Source of the DNA: an uncultured Planctomycetia bacterium
GTDB lineage: Bacteria; Planctomycetota; MHYJ01; WSZJ01; CAZYRM01
Length of the DNA: 64,000 bases
Reading direction: 5' to 3'
NCBI GenBank assembly: GCA_964649705.1
Contig: CAZYRM010000003.1
Span: 29,850 to 93,849, forward strand
The number at the start of each line of letters is the position of its first letter. Within the stretch, counting starts at the first letter, position 1. A model generated the notes under the pieces. That model ran no database searches. It worked only from the letters and a program-made list of their open reading frames with translations, and was not told the DNA's origin. Positions 1,406 through 35,122 of the stretch are shown here, in pieces. A program made the position numbers and the translations under genes.

Positions 1406-1857
1406 GGTCCCCGGGCCTCTGGTTCGCCGGCGAGCCGGTGTACGCCTTCCAGCCAGGTCGGGAGGCCCCCGGGTCAGGTTGGCTCGCTTTCCAGCCGGTC
1501 AGGCGGAATCGGGTTGCCTGGGTCCATTTCATGTAACTACTGGTAGAATATGATGCTGCGCCAGGACTCCGATGTGAGTCTGGGTGGCAGGAGGGTTGCC
1601 CATGATCTCTCTCAAGGAAGCACACTGCTGGGGCAAGGCGCCACGCGGGCGTCGTGGCAGTCACCCGCGTGGCACCCCCAGCCTTATCAAACGTACCAAC
1701 CCCCTCTGCACACAGGGGATGACCCCGATCGGTCGCGACCCCGACCGAGCGGGGTCCTCTATTTAAGGACTGGACCCGGCGGCCGGCTTCGGGCAGAATC
1801 CTCCCAACACAGGGGGAATGGGGCCCGAGGGGCCCCAGACACGGGGAGGTCCAATAC

Positions 1858-2196
1858 GTGAGGCATCTCCTGCTGGCATCGCTCGCACTGGCGATCACCG
1901 CGAGCACCGCCTTCGCGCAGGGTGGCTGAGGGTCGTCCGGCTACAGCTCGCCCGGGTATGGCGGGTACTACGGCGGATCCACCTACGGCTACTCCGACGG
2001 CCACCACAGCGGGACCCACTACGGGTACCACGACGGGTGGCACGGCGGCGTCCACTACGGCGAGTACGACACGCCGTACGGCAACAACTCCGGCTGGCAC
2101 GGCGGCACGCACTATGGCGGGCACACGACCTGGCACTCCGGCCATCACTACGGACAGCCCTACGAGCGGTACGACCCGTACGGCTGGTCAAGGTAG
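1858..2196 (+). CDS. Secreted Gly/Tyr/His-rich repeat protein with in-frame TGA at 1927-1929 (possible Sec recoding or pseudogene)
   Basis: GTG at 1858 preceded by GGGGAGG RBS; encodes signal peptide MRHLLLASLALAITASTAFAQGG then TGA, frame continues 89 codons (GSSGYSSPGYGGYYGG...HYGYHDGWHGG...) to TAG 2194-2196 with no internal start; hairpin GGACCCGGC/GCCGGGTCC follows. Confidence 0.3.
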
Positions 2197-2212
2197 CCCT
2201 CAGCCTCTGAAC

Positions 2213-2239
2213 GGACCCGGCGGCGCTGCTGCCGGGTCC
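2213..2239 (+). terminator. GC-rich hairpin (9-bp stem GGACCCGGC / GCCGGGTCC, 9-nt loop) after the G/Y/H-rich ORF; no U-tract
   Basis: Perfect inverted repeat read directly from sequence 17 nt after the TAG stop. Confidence 0.3.
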
Positions 2240-2310
2240 GATTCCATTCCGGACGCCCGAAACCCGCCCCGATCCGGCATTCCCCGTCTGGACGCAGATG
2301 GGAGCACCAG

Positions 2311-3591
2311 ATGAGACGAATCCCCCTCGCCGCGGCCGCTCTGGCCGCCGTCACCCTACTCCTCGCCGACCAGTCGCCCGACGAGGTCCGCAAGGCCATC
2401 GGCGACACCGAGGCCTCCGACGGCTGGGTCTACGACGACCTTCCCGCGGGCTTCGCGCAGGCGAAGCGGGAGGGCAAGCCGCTCTTCATCGTCTTCCGCT
2501 GAGTGCCCTGAAAGGGCTGCAAGGCCTTCGACGGGCAGGTTGCCCGTCTCGAGCAGGAACTCGCCGACCTCTCCTCGAAGTTCGTCTGCGTGCGCGTCGT
2601 CCAGATGCGCGGCGTCGACATCAGCCTCTTCCAGTTCGACTGGGACATGACCTGGGCGGCGATGTTCATGAACGCCGACCAGACGGTCTACGCCCGCTAC
2701 GGCTCCCGCGCCTCCGACCGCGACCACTCCGGCGACCTCGTCTCCGTCGCCGGCCTGCGCGCCTGCATGGAGCGCGTCCTCGATCTTCACGCGGCGTACC
2801 CCGGCAACAAGTCCCTCCTCGAGGGGAAGAAGGGAAAGCCCCTCAAGTGGCGCACGGCCGAGTCGATCCCGAACCTCGCGAGCCGCTTCAAGCAGACCGA
2901 CTTGCCGAAGGGCTGCATCCATTGCCACCACGTCACGATGGGCCTCCGCCGCGAGGCCGCCAACGCGAAGCGCCCCATCCCCGACAGCCTGCTCTGGCTC
3001 TACCCGCTGCCCGAAAACGTCGGCGTGAAGATCGCCATCGACGACGGCCGCCGCGTCGAGGCGGTGACGAAGGGCTCCGCCGCGGAGAAGGCGGGCGTCC
3101 TCGCGGGTGACGAGATCGAGTCGCTTGATGGCCAGGCCGTCACGTCGCCTGCCGACCTCCAGTGGGTCCTGCAGAACCTCGCCGACTCGGCCAGCCCGAA
3201 GGCGGTCGTGAGACGCGGATCCGAATCGAAGACGCTGACGCTTGCGCTCTCGGGGCCGTGGAAGCACTACGACATCGCTTGGCGCGAGTCGCTATGGGAC
3301 CTGCGCAGCGGCGTCGTGTGGGTGCCCCTGACGGACGACGAACGAAAGGCCGCCGGGCTCACCGGCGAGGTCCTCGGGCTCCGCGCGAAGTTCGTCGGGC
3401 CGCAGGGGAACGCGAAGAAGGGCCGTTTCCAGCAGGAGGACATCCTCGTCGAGGTGGACGGGAAGTCGGCGCCGATGACCGAAGGGGAGTTGATCGTCTT
3501 CCTCAGGCAGAAGCACGTCCCCGGCTCCAAGGTCCCGATGTCCGTCCTACGCGGGAAGAAGCGGGTCAAGCTGACGCTGGAGCTGAGCTAG
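2311..3591 (+). CDS. Secreted thioredoxin-fold selenoprotein candidate (UxxU active site, two in-frame TGA at 2500-2502 and 2509-2511) fused to two PDZ domains
   Basis: ORFs 2311..2502 and 2590..3591 are in the same frame separated only by TGA-GTG-CCC-TGA; the joined product reads signal peptide ... GKPLFIVFR-U-VP-U-KGCKAF (beta-strand + CxxC-type motif at a helix start, like thioredoxin WCGPCK); two PDZ-like segments (GVKIAIDDG...GDEIESLDGQAV and GLRAKFVGPQG...EDILVEVDGKS); TGA is a normal stop elsewhere in the window (valS, mlaF, hldE). Confidence 0.65.
2530..2548 (+). promoter_or_regulatory. Candidate bacterial SECIS element (stem GACGGGC / GCCCGTC, apical loop AGGUU)
   Basis: Perfect 7-bp GC stem with 5-nt loop containing GGU; apical loop lies 26 nt after the second UGA and 35 nt after the first, within the 16-37 nt window described for bacterial SECIS. 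Confidence 0.4.
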
Positions 3592-4600
3592 GACGCCGAT
3601 CGAACGCCTTCAGGAGCGGCCTCTCCACGACGAGATAGAACGCGACGCCCGCCAGGATCGCCAGGACCACGACGATGACGAATGCCGCGCCGTGGTGGAG
3701 CCTCGTGGGGACCCCCGCGGCGACGGCGAGCTTGGCGATGAGCGACAGCGCGGGCACGTGGGCGAGGAAGATGGCGTACGACGCGGCCCCGAGGAATGAG
3801 AGCATGCGAGGCACGCGCAGGCCTCCGGACCGCTCCGCCTCGGCCAGCCCCAGGACGACGCCCAGGCTGCCCACACCGTACGCAACCAGCAGCGCGGAGG
3901 CGCCCAGCCACCGCGTGTAGGTCTCCACGACGCCCGCCCCGAGGAAGACCACCGCTCCCAGGAGCGCGACCAGGCGCGGCGCGGGCACGGTCCGCCTCAC
4001 GTAGACGGCGGCTCCGAGCATCCCGAGGAAGAACTGGACATGCCGCAGGTCCCCCAGCAAGTCGAGCGGGAACGGGCGTGGCCCAGGCGGAAGCAGGATG
4101 AAGAGGAGCCACACCGCGAAGACGACCAGGCCGATCCGCCTGCCCGCGATGAAGGCGAGGAAGGCGGCGTAGAACAGGACCTCGTTGCAGAGGCTCCACG
4201 CGACGCCGAGGACGGGTCCGGGCGGGTGCCACACGAGCAGGAAGGAGCAGAGGATCGTGTCGGCCTCGCGCTCGTGCCCCACTCCCCAGTCCGGCCTGAA
4301 AAAGAAGACAGGCACGAGGAGCGCTGTGATCACCCAATACGGCGGGTAGATGCGTCGGAAGCGCTTCCAGGCGTAGGACGGCCAGCGCTCGGGGCGGCCG
4401 ATGTCGCCGCGGTGGGCATAGGCGATGATGAACCCGGAGAGGACGAAGAAGAAGTCGACGCCGGCGTGGCCGAAGTCGAAGAGGTCGCCGAACGGCTCCG
4501 CGCCCCAGTACTTCGACTTGGCGAAGATCGATCCGCTCGCGTGGAAGAGCAGGACGAGGATCGCCGCGGCGGCGCGGGCGGCCTGCAGGGAGTGGATCAT
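3566..4600 (-). CDS. Acyltransferase family 3 (OafA/NolL-like) integral membrane protein
   Basis: 344-aa ORF, ~10 predicted TM segments, N-terminal QAARAAAAILVLLFHA motif typical of acyltransferase_3. Confidence 0.8.
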   Translation of the reverse strand: MIHSLQAARAAAAILVLLFHASGSIFAKSKYWGAEPFGDLFDFGHAGVDFFFVLSGFIIAYAHRGDIGRPERWPSYAWKRFRRIYPPYWVITALLVPVFFFRPDWGVGHEREADTILCSFLLVWHPPGPVLGVAWSLCNEVLFYAAFLAFIAGRRIGLVVFAVWLLFILLPPGPRPFPLDLLGDLRHVQFFLGMLGAAVYVRRTVPAPRLVALLGAVVFLGAGVVETYTRWLGASALLVAYGVGSLGVVLGLAEAERSGGLRVPRMLSFLGAASYAIFLAHVPALSLIAKLAVAAGVPTRLHHGAAFVIVVVLAILAGVAFYLVVERPLLKAFDRRPSSAPASA

Positions 4601-30465: not shown

Positions 30466-30868
30466 GGTGTTCCTCCTGAAAAGTACGGTGGCCAGCCTAC
30501 AGAGGCGAGTCTCTCACGTCACGCCGTTTGCGTTTCGTCGCGGTGCCCCTCACTGGACGGCGCGGGAGTGATCTGCGGGTCCCCCAGCTCGCGGAAGGCG
30601 AGTTCGACGAGGTCATGCACGAGCGCGTCGAACGGGCCGCGCTGCCGCGTCGGCGGCCAGAGTCAGATAGCCGCGGAGGGAGAACGCCCGCAGGTACAAT
30701 CTGAGTTCGTTGCGCCAGCGACGCGCGCTGAGTTCGACGTCCTCGTGCTTCCCCTCCTCCACCACAGACCGGGACGGGATCGTGAAGGCACGCGTCGCTC
30801 GATCGACCTCTGGATTGCAGTGGGCGGCGCGAGGTACCATCTGCTACATGCCGCCGTAGGAGAGGACG

Positions 30869-33800
30869 ATGGTGGACGACGCGAGCAGCCCGCCCGCTAG
30901 TAGCACGGACGCTCAACCCAGCGAGCACCTCGCCGGGGACCTTCTACGAGGGGTGCCAGGCACCGTCTCCACTGAGCCTTCGGGGACGGGCTCTGCTGAT
31001 CTCGAAACGCCCCACTCAGGGTTGTCGACGCTCTCGCTGGCGAAGCCAGCTGCGGCGATCGCTGCTGAAGGGCCTACGCCCGACGCGGCGACACCTCTGC
31101 TCACGGGACTGACGTGGGCTTGGCCGAACGTGCCGCGGCGGCTCGGCCAATACGAATTGGTCGGAGAGCTGGGCCATGGCGGGATGGGGATCGTTTTCCG
31201 TGCGCGGCACGTGAAGCTGGGGACGGAATGCGCGGTGAAGGTCCTCATCGCCGGGGAGCACGCCTCACCCGAGATGATGTCGCGGTTCCAGCGCGAGGCG
31301 GCGGCGGTCGCCAGGATGGGGAAGCACCCAAACATCGTTACGGTTTTCGATCTCGGACAGGAGGGCAGCCTCTTCTACTACGCGATGGAGCTGGTGGACG
31401 GCATGTCGCTCTCTAGGCTCTTGCGCGAGCGGGGGGGAGAGTTCACACCCCAAGAGACGGCAGTCCTCGTGGAACAGGTCGCACGCGCGGTCCACTTCGC
31501 ACATGCGCACAAGGTGATTCACAGGGACCTGAAGCCCGACAACATCGTGGTGCGCACCATCTCGACTGGCGCGAGCATCGCTTGGGAGCCGCAAGTGATG
31601 GACTTCGGCCTCGCGCGCGACATCGGATCCGCGGAGAAGCTCTCCGTGACCGGGCATGTGATGGGCTCGCCGAACTACATGGCCCCCGAGCAGGCCTGGG
31701 GGAGGCACGAGGAGAGCGACGCGCGAACGGACGTCTACGGGCTCGGTGCAATTCTCTACCAGATGCTCGCGGGCTTTCCTCCGCATCCCGGTAGGGACCA
31801 GTACAAGGTCATAGACGACATTCGGAGAGGCAAGGAGGTCGTCCTGCCCAGGCGAGTGCGGTCCGACGCACCCAAGGACCTGGAGACGATTTGCCTCAGG
31901 TGCCTGGAGGTAGTGCAGGGCAAGCGCTATCCAACCGCGGAGGCCCTCGCCGAGGACCTCGCGAGGTTCAGGCGCGGGGAGCCAGTCCACGCGCGGCCGG
32001 TGTCCTTGGCGTCGCGGGCATGGCGTAGAGCAGTGCGGCACTGGCGGGTCGTCTTGCCGAGCACTGTGGCGGTCGGCGTGGCCCTCGCGTTCGGGCTCTA
32101 CGCGGTCGTAAGTCATTTCCGGCACGTTCGAGATCTCGACGCGGAGCAGGGGAGGACGCAGGCGGCGCTGCTGAAGACAGAGGATGCACTCACGATCGCC
32201 GAGGAGGCGAAGGTCTTGGCGCAGGCCTCGGAGGCTCGAGAGGGGAGGCTCAAGCGGAGATCCCAGGCAGAGGCGGAGATCCTCAAGGCGCAACGAGACT
32301 CGAACGCTGGGAACCAAATGAACGCCCTGGCCCACGCGATTGCCTCTGTGCGACTCCGCCCAGGGGCTGTTGCCGCAGAGGAGGCGTGGCGGGCACACGC
32401 ATTCGCACCCGCTGTCCGTTGGTGCTCACCGAGCAAGGTAGGCCACCAGGACTCCCTCAGGTGGGTCTCGTTCAGCCCAGATGGGAGCCGGATACTCTCC
32501 GTGTCCCTGGACAACACGGTTCGTTCTTGGGAGGTGTCCTCGGGGAAGGAGCTTGTTCGCCACGATGTGCATACGAGCGGCGTCATGTGCCTCGCGCTCA
32601 GCTCGGACGGTACCCGGCTCGTGTCGTTCTCGCCAGACAACGCAGGCTCCGTGTGGGACACGGCCACCGGGAGGGAGGTGGTCCGCCTCGAGGGGCATAC
32701 GATGCTCGTCATAAACCTCGCGCTCAGCCCGGACGGTACCCGTGTAGTATCAGGGTCCGCGGACAACACGGTTCGCATCTGGGACGCGGACTCGGGCGAG
32801 GAGTTAGCTCGCCCTGAAGGGCACCCAAAATTCGTCTCCTCCTTGGCCTTCAGCCCGGACGGCAAGCGAGTTGCCGTGGCTGGTGACTGGGTCGGGATCT
32901 GGGACGTCGCGTCAGCGAAGCTCGTGGCACGCCTCGAAGGGGATAATTTCCGTGTCCATGAGGTTGCCTTCAGCCCGGATGGCGCCCGAGTCGTTGGGGT
33001 GCTAGACGACAGCGCTATCCGAATCTGGGACGCGCCTTCGGGCAAAGAGTTGGCGCGCCTCCAAGGCGATGCGGGGTATGTCACTTGCCTCGCTCTCAGC
33101 CCGGACGGGAACCACGTCGTCTCGGGGTCTGTCGACAACTCGATTCGTCTGTGGGACACAGCCTCAAGGAAGGAGACGGCTCGTCTCCAGGGGCATAGGG
33201 CGCCCGTGAGGTCGGTCGCCTTCAGTCCAGACGGGAGTTGGGTCGTCTCGGGATCGGACGACCACACGGTCCGTCTCTGGGATACGGCCCCGAGGAAGGA
33301 GGTCGGCCGTATCGAGGGGCACACCAACATCGTAAGTTCCATTGCCTTCAGCCCGGATGGAAGCCGACTTGTGACGGGATCCGGCGACAACACGCTCCGC
33401 CTCTGGAACGCGACGACCGGCAGGGAGATCACCCGCTTCGAAGGGCATACAGAGATGGTCCATTCGGTCGCCTTCAGTCTGGACGGGACCCATCTCGCCT
33501 CGGGATCCGGTGACGACACGGTCCGCCTTTGGGACGTGGCGACAGGGAAGGAGGTGGGCCGGCTCGAAGGGCATACAGGGTGCGTCATTTCGGTCGACTT
33601 TAGCCCAGACGCGAGCCGAGTCCTGTCGCGTTCCGATTCGACCGCCAGCCTCTGGAACCTCGCCTCGGGGAAGGAGGTCGCCCGCATCGGCGGGCAGGAC
33701 GACTTCGTGACGAACGTTTCTTTCAGCCCAGATGGCAGGTGGATCGTCTCCGCCTTGGGCGGCAGCACGATTCACCTCCTAGACGCGGCCTCTGGAAGGG

Positions 33801-35122
33801 AGGTAGCTCGCCTCACGGGACATACGGACATGGTGTGTCGGGTCACCTTCAGCCTTGACGGCATGCGGCTCGTCTCGGGATCCCTGGACAACACCATACG
33901 CATATGGGATGCGGCCTCTGGGAAGGAGGTGAGTCGCCTTACCGGGCATACGGGCTCCGTCACTTTCGTCGCGTTCGCCCTGGACGGGACCAGGGTCGTC
34001 TCCGCGTCACTGGACGACACGGTCCGGCTCTGGGACGTAGCGTCGGAGAGCGAGGTGGCCAAGTTGGAACGGGTAAAGAGCGATGGCACGGCCCTCAGCC
34101 TCAGCCCGGACGGGGCTAGGATTGCAAGGAGTGGAGTCGACGGGGTGCTGCTCTGGGACGCAGCGTCAGGTAAGGAGGTGGCCCGGTTTGCGGGACCTAC
34201 CAGGAGTTTCATGCCCGTAGTGTTCAGCCCAGACGGGAGTCGGATTGCGTTGGTCGGGGTCGAGGAGGGGGTCCGAGTTCTTGACGCAGCCTCGGGAAGG
34301 GAAGTAGCCCGGCTCGGGGGCCATAGCGACGAGGTTACGTGCGTTGCGTTCAGCCCTGATGGTACCCGTGTCGTCTCGGCGTCGTCGCTGGACGGGACTG
34401 TCCGTCTCTGGGACGCCGCGTCCGGGGGAGAGATAGCGTGCCTCAAGGGACACGCCGAGACCGTCTCGTCCGTAGCCTTCAGCCTGGACGGCACCAGGGT
34501 GGTTTCGGGGTCCCACGACAAGACGATTCGGGTTTGGGACGCGAGTTCAAGCAAGCAGCCGGCTCCCTTTGAGGGGCATGCGGATCGCGTTGCGTTCGTC
34601 GCGTTCAGCCCCGATGGAACCCGGATCGTCTCGGCGTCCAAGGACAAGACGGTCCGGCTCTGGGACGCGGACTCGGGGGAGGAGGTAGGACGGCTCCAGG
34701 GGCATACGGCCCCTGTCAGGGTGGTCGCCTTTAGCCCCGACGCGATGTGGGTGACTTCGGAGGACTCTAACGGAGTGGTCCTACGTTGGAATGCGACCAC
34801 AGGCGCACCGGTCCAGGAATCTGACGAGGCAGCAGCCAAGGCGTGTCTCGACGAGTGGCTCGCGATCCAGGGCCTGCGCGCGCCAACTCGCCTTCCCCAC
34901 GTCGGCGCAGTCATCCTGGAAGGTGAGGCCGAGTGGCGCACGGCATGGAGCGACCCCGAGCGGGGCGAAAACGGCCTCCCGAGGAAGGTGGCACGGATCC
35001 TCGACCGGTGGGAACATGATATCGGCATGCGAGTCGACATTGAGACGGGTAAACTCGTGCGCCTCTCGTGCCCCGGCCCCGCCTTCGCGAACGACCCTCA
35101 GATCGCACCGCTGTGCAAGTAG
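30869..35122 (+). CDS. Serine/threonine protein kinase fused to ~28 WD40 repeats (1417 aa)
   Basis: Hanks kinase motifs GELGHGGMGIVFRA, AVKVL, HRDLKPDNIVV, DFGLAR, APE; followed by regularly spaced WD40 units (GH...V.S.AFSPDG..V.SGS.D.T.RLWD). Confidence 0.85.
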   Translation: MVDDASSPPASSTDAQPSEHLAGDLLRGVPGTVSTEPSGTGSADLETPHSGLSTLSLAKPAAAIAAEGPTPDAATPLLTGLTWAWPNVPRRLGQYELVGELGHGGMGIVFRARHVKLGTECAVKVLIAGEHASPEMMSRFQREAAAVARMGKHPNIVTVFDLGQEGSLFYYAMELVDGMSLSRLLRERGGEFTPQETAVLVEQVARAVHFAHAHKVIHRDLKPDNIVVRTISTGASIAWEPQVMDFGLARDIGSAEKLSVTGHVMGSPNYMAPEQAWGRHEESDARTDVYGLGAILYQMLAGFPPHPGRDQYKVIDDIRRGKEVVLPRRVRSDAPKDLETICLRCLEVVQGKRYPTAEALAEDLARFRRGEPVHARPVSLASRAWRRAVRHWRVVLPSTVAVGVALAFGLYAVVSHFRHVRDLDAEQGRTQAALLKTEDALTIAEEAKVLAQASEAREGRLKRRSQAEAEILKAQRDSNAGNQMNALAHAIASVRLRPGAVAAEEAWRAHAFAPAVRWCSPSKVGHQDSLRWVSFSPDGSRILSVSLDNTVRSWEVSSGKELVRHDVHTSGVMCLALSSDGTRLVSFSPDNAGSVWDTATGREVVRLEGHTMLVINLALSPDGTRVVSGSADNTVRIWDADSGEELARPEGHPKFVSSLAFSPDGKRVAVAGDWVGIWDVASAKLVARLEGDNFRVHEVAFSPDGARVVGVLDDSAIRIWDAPSGKELARLQGDAGYVTCLALSPDGNHVVSGSVDNSIRLWDTASRKETARLQGHRAPVRSVAFSPDGSWVVSGSDDHTVRLWDTAPRKEVGRIEGHTNIVSSIAFSPDGSRLVTGSGDNTLRLWNATTGREITRFEGHTEMVHSVAFSLDGTHLASGSGDDTVRLWDVATGKEVGRLEGHTGCVISVDFSPDASRVLSRSDSTASLWNLASGKEVARIGGQDDFVTNVSFSPDGRWIVSALGGSTIHLLDAASGREVARLTGHTDMVCRVTFSLDGMRLVSGSLDNTIRIWDAASGKEVSRLTGHTGSVTFVAFALDGTRVVSASLDDTVRLWDVASESEVAKLERVKSDGTALSLSPDGARIARSGVDGVLLWDAASGKEVARFAGPTRSFMPVVFSPDGSRIALVGVEEGVRVLDAASGREVARLGGHSDEVTCVAFSPDGTRVVSASSLDGTVRLWDAASGGEIACLKGHAETVSSVAFSLDGTRVVSGSHDKTIRVWDASSSKQPAPFEGHADRVAFVAFSPDGTRIVSASKDKTVRLWDADSGEEVGRLQGHTAPVRVVAFSPDAMWVTSEDSNGVVLRWNATTGAPVQESDEAAAKACLDEWLAIQGLRAPTRLPHVGAVILEGEAEWRTAWSDPERGENGLPRKVARILDRWEHDIGMRVDIETGKLVRLSCPGPAFANDPQIAPLCK

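Follow-up and report, generated by a model that had tools for sequence, protein, structure and literature searches.

A probable selenocysteine codon in the gene for a secreted Gly/Tyr/His-rich peptide from an uncultured planctomycete

We examined a 64,000-nucleotide stretch of contig CAZYRM010000003.1 from an uncultured Planctomycetia bacterium (GenBank assembly GCA_964649705.1; positions 29,850 to 93,849, forward strand), referred to below as the window, in which positions 1858–2196 encode a secreted peptide rich in glycine, tyrosine and histidine that is interrupted in frame by a TGA. The initial annotation of this DNA had left two explanations for that codon: a selenocysteine (Sec)-containing peptide or a recent nonsense pseudogene. 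We favor the first, and estimate at roughly 0.75 the probability that the locus is a live gene in which UGA-24 is read as Sec, and thus a probable new selenoprotein family. Four observations carry this reading: the UGA stands opposite cysteine codons in relatives of the gene, the frame downstream of it is under purifying selection, a compatible hairpin follows it, and Sec is decoded in the adjacent gene. By our estimate the odds favor Sec over a fresh nonsense mutation by a factor of about 4–5.

Most of the gene structure read by eye in the initial annotation was borne out. A GTG codon preceded by a strong ribosome-binding site (RBS; GGGGAGG) opens the frame, the product starts MRHLLLASLALAITASTAFAQGG with a signal peptide, the TGA follows at codon 24, and the Gly/Tyr/His-rich continuation runs to a TAG (2194–2196) shortly before a terminator-like hairpin (Table 1). 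The continuation comprises 88 sense codons rather than the 89 first counted, contains no in-frame ATG, GTG or TTG, and is free of frameshifts and further stops. Its GC content at third codon positions (GC3) is 0.93, as compared with 0.55–0.56 in the other two frames and 0.83 ahead of the UGA; because of this value, and of a codon choice that agrees with that of confident genes of the window, we take it to be the coding frame. The sequence codes before as well as after the UGA, each part being homologous to an uninterrupted orthologue (described below). A short open reading frame (ORF) with a strong RBS upstream of another gene could also be a leader or regulatory peptide of 23 codons, with the downstream frame untranslated. 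We give that explanation very little credence, since the 23 residues are a standard export signal with homology to the signal peptides that full-length orthologues carry, the downstream frame combines its high GC3 with a ratio of nonsynonymous to synonymous divergence (omega) of 0.09–0.18, and a strong terminator separates the ORF from the next gene.

Members of the peptide's family are extremely scarce: of 5.8 billion proteins searched by word index one matched, and HMMER run in full against 1.84 billion cluster representatives returned three relatives (P0001, P0122 and P0123). P0001 (109 residues, 85% identical to the window peptide) is encoded without interruption on Logan contig L001 and has TGT opposite the TGA; the window has homologous counterparts of its signal peptide, 5′ untranslated region (5′-UTR) hairpin, RBS and terminator. 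P0122 (108 residues, contig L011) has TGC at the same position in an ungapped alignment (AYA/DDGC-APSGY against AFA/QGGU-GSSGY, the slash marking the predicted signal-peptide cleavage site). The initial annotation had proposed examining orthologues for Cys or Sec at this position, and Cys is what two of the three full-length relatives have there, in both cases as the sole cysteine of the mature peptide. No cysteine occurs in the mature part of P0123, the most distant of the relatives. Of the 52–82 single-base substitutions by which a stop could arise in the gene, only one is Cys to TGA (1.2–1.9%), and a nonsense mutation would thus have fallen on this single conserved Cys codon with a chance of ~1–2%, before frameshifts and other inactivating events are counted.

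Cluster look-ups yielded two sister contigs that carry the gene, L002 (the lineage of run SRR22387827) and L013. The L013 contig (512 nucleotides, from a closer lineage) holds the last 64 codons directly upstream of its Trx7/PDZ gene, the L002 contig starts with the terminator of the gene, and both lack sequence up to codon 24. Scans of JGI metagenomes and GTDB genomes with a back-translated pattern and with degenerate DNA gave no further orthologues, and a homologue search for sister contigs by way of the upstream FG-GAP gene gave only matches of at most 56% identity. Pfam searches with the neighboring gene fragments of L011 and L012 returned nothing usable, and a guess that the neighbor in L011 carries a heavy-metal-associated motif found no support there. 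L011 and L013 both come from ENA assembly ERZ27247831, so that one metagenome holds two different family members, which have unlike neighbor genes. Downstream of the Cys orthologue on L001 (positions 873–1241) lies an orfA of the insertion sequence (IS) type of transposase (HTH_Tnp_1, E 5e-9), with an in-frame TGA where a conserved Trp seems expected (QVYK*QRT); it is probably an inactivated IS copy.

Strong purifying selection acts on the region downstream of the TGA, and does so on the window's own branch as well. Between the window and L001 the synonymous divergence (dS) after the UGA is 0.62 and the nonsynonymous divergence (dN) 0.11, for an omega of 0.18. The last 64 codons differ from those of L013 by 12 synonymous and 5 nonsynonymous changes (omega 0.086), the L002 and L013 lineages lying at a dS of about 0.4 from the window. 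With L001 used to polarize the changes, at least 7 synonymous ones and no unambiguous nonsynonymous one (at most 3) fall on the window's own branch, a pattern incompatible with neutral drift (binomial p ≤0.001). These values bear directly on the pseudogene explanation, under which a TGY-to-TGA transversion at the Cys codon would have left a stop after the 23-residue signal peptide and decay would not yet have set in. The hallmarks of a nonsense pseudogene (relaxed constraint and further lesions beyond the stop) are absent, with omega at 0.09–0.18 and neither a frameshift nor a second stop. A rough Poisson estimate that takes ~27 nonsynonymous changes as the neutral expectation suggests that any nonsense event would have to lie in about the last quarter of the window's branch.

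The gene immediately downstream encodes a selenoprotein, as the initial annotation had proposed. It matches the NCBIfam model NF041199, ‘Trx7/PDZ domain-containing (seleno)protein’, at 399.9 bits (cutoff 300), contains Thioredoxin_7 and PDZ domains, and has a UVPUKGC motif that aligns to CVPCxxC in Cys homologues. Its two UGAs are followed by a perfect 8-basepair hairpin (GACGGGCA-GGU-UGCCCGUC, 2530–2548; z-score −4.65), and both the codons and the hairpin are conserved in five lineages (L002, L003, L009, L010 and L013). Because these elements have been kept in five diverged lineages, the clade decodes Sec; complete Sec machinery has also been documented in Planctomycetes (PMC4807772). This places a UGA decoded as Sec 570 nucleotides downstream of UGA-24 in the same organism, which argues further against a pseudogene. 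The two Sec codons of the Trx7/PDZ gene are 6 nucleotides apart and are apparently served by one hairpin, whose loop lies 35 and 26 nucleotides from them. In a 2026 review the Trx7/PDZ family is given as CxxU, with a single Sec (PMC13188914); the proteins of this clade differ in having two.

Several further features of the Trx7/PDZ locus were recorded. The peptide gene adjoins it in three lineages (the window, L002 and L013). An acyltransferase gene on the minus strand converges on its 3′ end and overlaps it by 26 nucleotides (3566–3591), an overlap also called in L003, L004, L005, L009 and L010. A scan of the window for other in-frame TGAs flagged two further places, neither of them in a homology-supported frame; its thresholds also missed the three TGAs of the peptide and Trx7/PDZ genes, and the scan is thus not exhaustive.

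The hairpin that follows UGA-24 has a 7-basepair stem and a 7-nucleotide loop (CGGGUAU) with G at its second position, and the loop begins 23 nucleotides after the UGA. Published criteria for a bacterial selenocysteine insertion sequence (bSECIS) call for a loop of 3–9 nucleotides, a stem of 4–16 basepairs, G in the first two loop positions, a distance of 16–37 nucleotides from the UGA and a minimum free energy (MFE) of −7.5 kcal/mol or lower (PMC13188914), and the hairpin lies within all of these bounds. The initial annotation was right that a hairpin exists here, while its drawing (a 4-basepair stem with a GGUAUGG loop at 26 nucleotides) has been replaced, and the spacing is not the same as in the neighboring gene (23 nucleotides as opposed to 26 and 35). 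Folding of the region around the UGA, which had been suggested as a check, returned this hairpin at −9.5 kcal/mol. A search of Rfam with the peptide locus gave no family at the gathering threshold and only weak, chance-level matches.

Selection downstream of a UGA demonstrates translation and says nothing of the inserted residue, and among stop codons UGA is as a rule the leakiest. UGA-24 might therefore be read at low efficiency by a near-cognate tRNA for Trp or Cys, independently of SelB, to give a full-length peptide devoid of selenium. We regard such readthrough as quite improbable, given that a dedicated Sec system is active in the clade, that a bSECIS-compatible hairpin lies at the right distance, and that there is no evident advantage in exchanging Cys for inefficient readthrough.

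It is also exceedingly improbable that the TGA reflects a sequencing or assembly error, or a genetic code in which TGA is reassigned to Gly or Trp, even though the sequence derives from a metagenome-assembled genome and the TGA stands in a Gly-rich context. Three more assemblies, each from another run (L004, L006 and L007), show 100% identity to the window over a 621-nucleotide region that includes the TGA, and this identity across four assemblies excludes an error; the window sequence is also present in assemblies from Hainich groundwater well H51. Reassignment is ruled out by the use of TGA as an ordinary stop: in the window (GC content 69%) it ends about 40% of the high-confidence genes, many of which have a GC3 above 0.9, and the code is therefore the standard one.

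A number of observations weigh against the Sec reading, and several of them also speak for a pseudogene. Only identical copies of the TGA-bearing form were found, with no sequence-diverged second copy, so that a single sequence type with the TGA is known. The gene is absent from one sister lineage (L009/L010) and is therefore dispensable, which keeps a decaying gene plausible. Gene callers annotate nothing at the locus in any assembly, and three of the seven synonymous changes specific to the window go to rare codons (TAT, CAT and GGA), indicating some drift on its branch. The hairpin, moreover, is not specific: a hairpin of equal or better quality follows 8.8% of random codons in genes of the window, the local MFE around the UGA is ordinary (z-score 0.2), and the Cys orthologue on L001 has the same hairpin in a stronger version (ACUCGCCG-GGGUA-CGGCGGGU, −13.6 kcal/mol, ~20 nucleotides after the TGT). 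The shared hairpin may reflect the coding of a conserved SPGYGGYY segment; by analogy with Cys homologues descended from selenoproteins, which may retain remnant SECIS-like structures (PMC1794560), that of L001 may instead be a remnant SECIS. In view of the background frequency, the ordinary local MFE and the presence in the Cys orthologue, we give the hairpin modest evidential weight. Finally, none of selA, selB, selC and selD, nor any tRNA, was seen in the 64-kb window. With the aligned cysteine, the selection on the window's own branch and the Sec-decoding neighbor set against these points, we consider a recent nonsense pseudogene unlikely, and we infer that Sec is inserted at UGA-24.

The peptide gene, its 5′ region and its terminator together form a cassette (~1772–2240) bounded by two copies of a 12-nucleotide direct repeat, GGACCCGGCGGC. 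The repeat occurs only twice in the 64-kb window, at 1772 and 2213 (0.12 occurrences expected), and its right copy (2213–2224) is the 5′ arm of the terminator hairpin. In the sister lineage represented by two independent assemblies, L009 and L010, the cassette is cleanly missing (L009 positions 3905–3935), and the DNA on either side of it is still present, with a highly conserved block on the upstream side. Three of four close lineages thus hold the peptide gene beside Trx7/PDZ, and the fourth has lost it or never gained it. Within the cassette, a scan with the sigma-70 consensus found no full promoter upstream of the peptide gene; a putative −10 element is listed in Table 1 with the other features.

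Table 1. Positions of the peptide gene, its signals and the adjacent selenoprotein gene in the window
Feature	Positions	Strand	Details
Left copy of 12-nucleotide direct repeat GGACCCGGCGGC	1772–1783	+	Left edge of ~440-nucleotide gene cassette
Putative −10 element CAGAAT	1794–1799	+	Position conserved in the window/L001 alignment (TGTAGAAT in L001); inferred
5′-UTR hairpin GGGGCCC-GAG-GGGCCCC	1820–1836	+	Read from the sequence; same stem with another loop in L001 (GGGGCC-ACAC-GGCCCC)
Shine-Dalgarno sequence GGGGAGG	1843–1849	+	8 nucleotides before GTG 1858; AAGGAGG in L001
Secreted Gly/Tyr/His-rich peptide gene	1858–2196	+	112 codons including UGA-24, plus TAG; based on translation, GC3, orthologues and omega
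Sec-type (secretory) signal peptide MRHLLLASLALAITASTAFA	1858–1917	+	Predicted cleavage AFA/QGGU; n-region, h-region and AxA read from the sequence
In-frame TGA, proposed Sec codon	1927–1929	+	Mature residue 4; opposite TGT (L001) and TGC (L011); identical in 4 assemblies
bSECIS-like hairpin GCUCGCC-CGGGUAU-GGCGGGU	1946–1966	+	−9.5 kcal/mol; arms 1946–1952 and 1960–1966
First tetrad block, of five x-H-x-G units (HHSG THYG YHDG WHGG VHYG)	2002–2061	+	Invariant His and Gly columns
Second tetrad block (WHGG THYG GHTT WHSG HHYG)	2095–2154	+	Same period
Terminator-like hairpin	2212–2240	+	−36.2 kcal/mol, z-score −3.5; conserved in L001, L002 and L013
Trx7/PDZ selenoprotein gene	2311–3591	+	UGAs 2500–2502 and 2509–2511 (FR-U-VP-U-KGC); SECIS hairpin 2530–2548

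Two features elsewhere in the window were noted in passing. An intergenic block of ~150 nucleotides (1613–1765) is almost 100% identical to L009, as compared with ~55% for the surrounding intergenic DNA; it folds at −76 kcal/mol (z-score −4.0) and has at its end a terminator-like hairpin (1737–1756) followed by CTCTATTTAA. Rfam gave no family for this block at the gathering threshold (a weak match to the F6 small RNA had an E value of 0.025), and the block resembles a small RNA gene that has escaped annotation. Further away, positions 30860–35122 encode a 1420-residue protein kinase in which WD40 repeats are numerous. Its GC3 of 0.78 is noticeably below that of the genes around it (0.93–0.97); it may have been acquired horizontally.

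The AxA motif that precedes the predicted cleavage site is present in all three close relatives (ASA/QDC in P0001 and AYA/DDGC in P0122), and we therefore place the signal-peptide cleavage after AFA, so that the mature peptide would start QGGU (QDC and DDGC in the two relatives). A lipoprotein was considered and rejected: the lipobox [LVI][ASTVI][GAS]C is not found, the residues concerned being Q-G-G-U in the window, A-Q-D-C in P0001 and D-D-G-C in P0122, after a signal peptidase I site of the AxA type. The mature peptide has 92 residues, of which 26 are Gly (28%), 16 Tyr (17%), 12 His (13%), 10 Ser and 4 Trp, and is nearly devoid of aliphatic residues. Neither Lys nor Arg occurs before mature residue 84, which makes the peptide ill suited to trypsin digestion. 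Its two tetrad blocks have His at every fourth residue, which appears as a 12-nucleotide periodicity in the DNA.

Judging by this composition, binding of metal in the periplasm or outside the cell would be the most likely role of the peptide. Pfam-A and NCBIfam searches with the window peptide, P0001 and P0122 returned no match, and the best match in a sequence profile search of the PDB (E 0.2) was not a relative; the proposed function therefore has no family or structural match behind it. The AlphaFold model has a predicted local distance difference test (pLDDT) value of 39.6, which likewise lends no weight to that function and is consistent either with disorder or with an alignment of insufficient depth; we consider the mature peptide to be probably disordered.

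Taken together, these features suggest the following course of expression. The mRNA would carry its own promoter-proximal 5′ hairpin, strong RBS and terminator, and translation would begin at GTG 1858. With UGA 1927–1929 in the A site, the hairpin at 1946–1966, which has a G-rich apical loop, would recruit SelB with Sec-tRNA(Sec). The pre-peptide would then be exported by the Sec translocon and cleaved after AFA (residue 20), and the N-terminal Sec (Cys in relatives) could serve as a soft or redox-active ligand or as an attachment point. The recoding mechanism is the known, standard one, and the novelty lies in the protein family, with its unusual and non-enzyme-like character. A bolder proposal, which we advance only tentatively and consider on balance doubtful, is that this is the first non-enzyme bacterial selenoprotein: an exported, disordered His/Tyr/Gly-repeat peptide with a single N-terminal Sec as its metal-binding or redox head group, encoded on a self-contained promoter-to-terminator cassette that is gained or lost beside a periplasmic Trx7/PDZ selenoprotein, its possible redox partner.

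If the Sec reading is correct, a secreted, probably unstructured His-rich peptide with Sec at mature residue 4 would widen the known bacterial uses of selenium, and would point to extracytoplasmic handling of metal or selenium in groundwater Planctomycetota. Genes of this kind stay invisible, this one being uncalled in every assembly and its family counting only a handful of sequences in billions of predicted proteins. Until Sec insertion has been confirmed, the practical value is modest.

Comparison with known systems begins with the adjacent gene. The Trx7/PDZ selenoprotein (NF041199) resembles the peptide in its organism and locus, its signal peptide and its UGA recoding. It differs in being a folded, thioredoxin-like redox protein that has no sequence relationship to the peptide, and in persisting in L009/L010, from which the peptide gene is deleted; a terminator lies between the two genes. 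Like known prokaryotic selenoproteins with Sec/Cys pairs and a bSECIS, the peptide gene has a UGA opposite Cys and a hairpin 16–37 nucleotides downstream (PMC13188914); further shared points are a G at the start of a loop of 3–9 nucleotides and a Cys orthologue that keeps a SECIS-like hairpin (PMC1794560). According to two publications, most families of prokaryotic selenoproteins are believed to take part in redox reactions and to have Sec at the active site (PMC9312934, PMC13188914). The peptide departs from such proteins as a 92-residue, low-complexity chain with no predicted fold, CxxC-type motif or family match.

Selenoprotein P is rich in histidine. This eukaryotic protein is also described as secreted and as combining Sec with a capacity to bind metal (PMC8280497). 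The analogy with the peptide is one of function only: selenoprotein P has many Sec residues, a SECIS in its 3′-UTR and a thioredoxin-like N-terminal domain, is eukaryotic, and shows no homology to the peptide. In the jaw proteins of Nereis (with GYGHG, GYGGH and DYG motifs) and the His-rich proteins of squid beak, histidine drives metal coordination or cross-linking and a response to pH (PMC9999432). The likeness to the peptide lies in composition and short motifs (GYGGH-like, DYG and HxG) and is compositional only; the jaw and beak proteins are eukaryotic structural proteins from animals, far larger than the peptide, and lack a Sec or Cys head group. In the prion protein, copper-binding repeats (PHGGGWGQ) combine His, Gly and Trp. 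They have a period of 8 residues, as opposed to 4 in the peptide, and are not homologous to it; they resemble it, on composition only, in the GWHGG/WHGG motif that recurs in both of its tetrad blocks.
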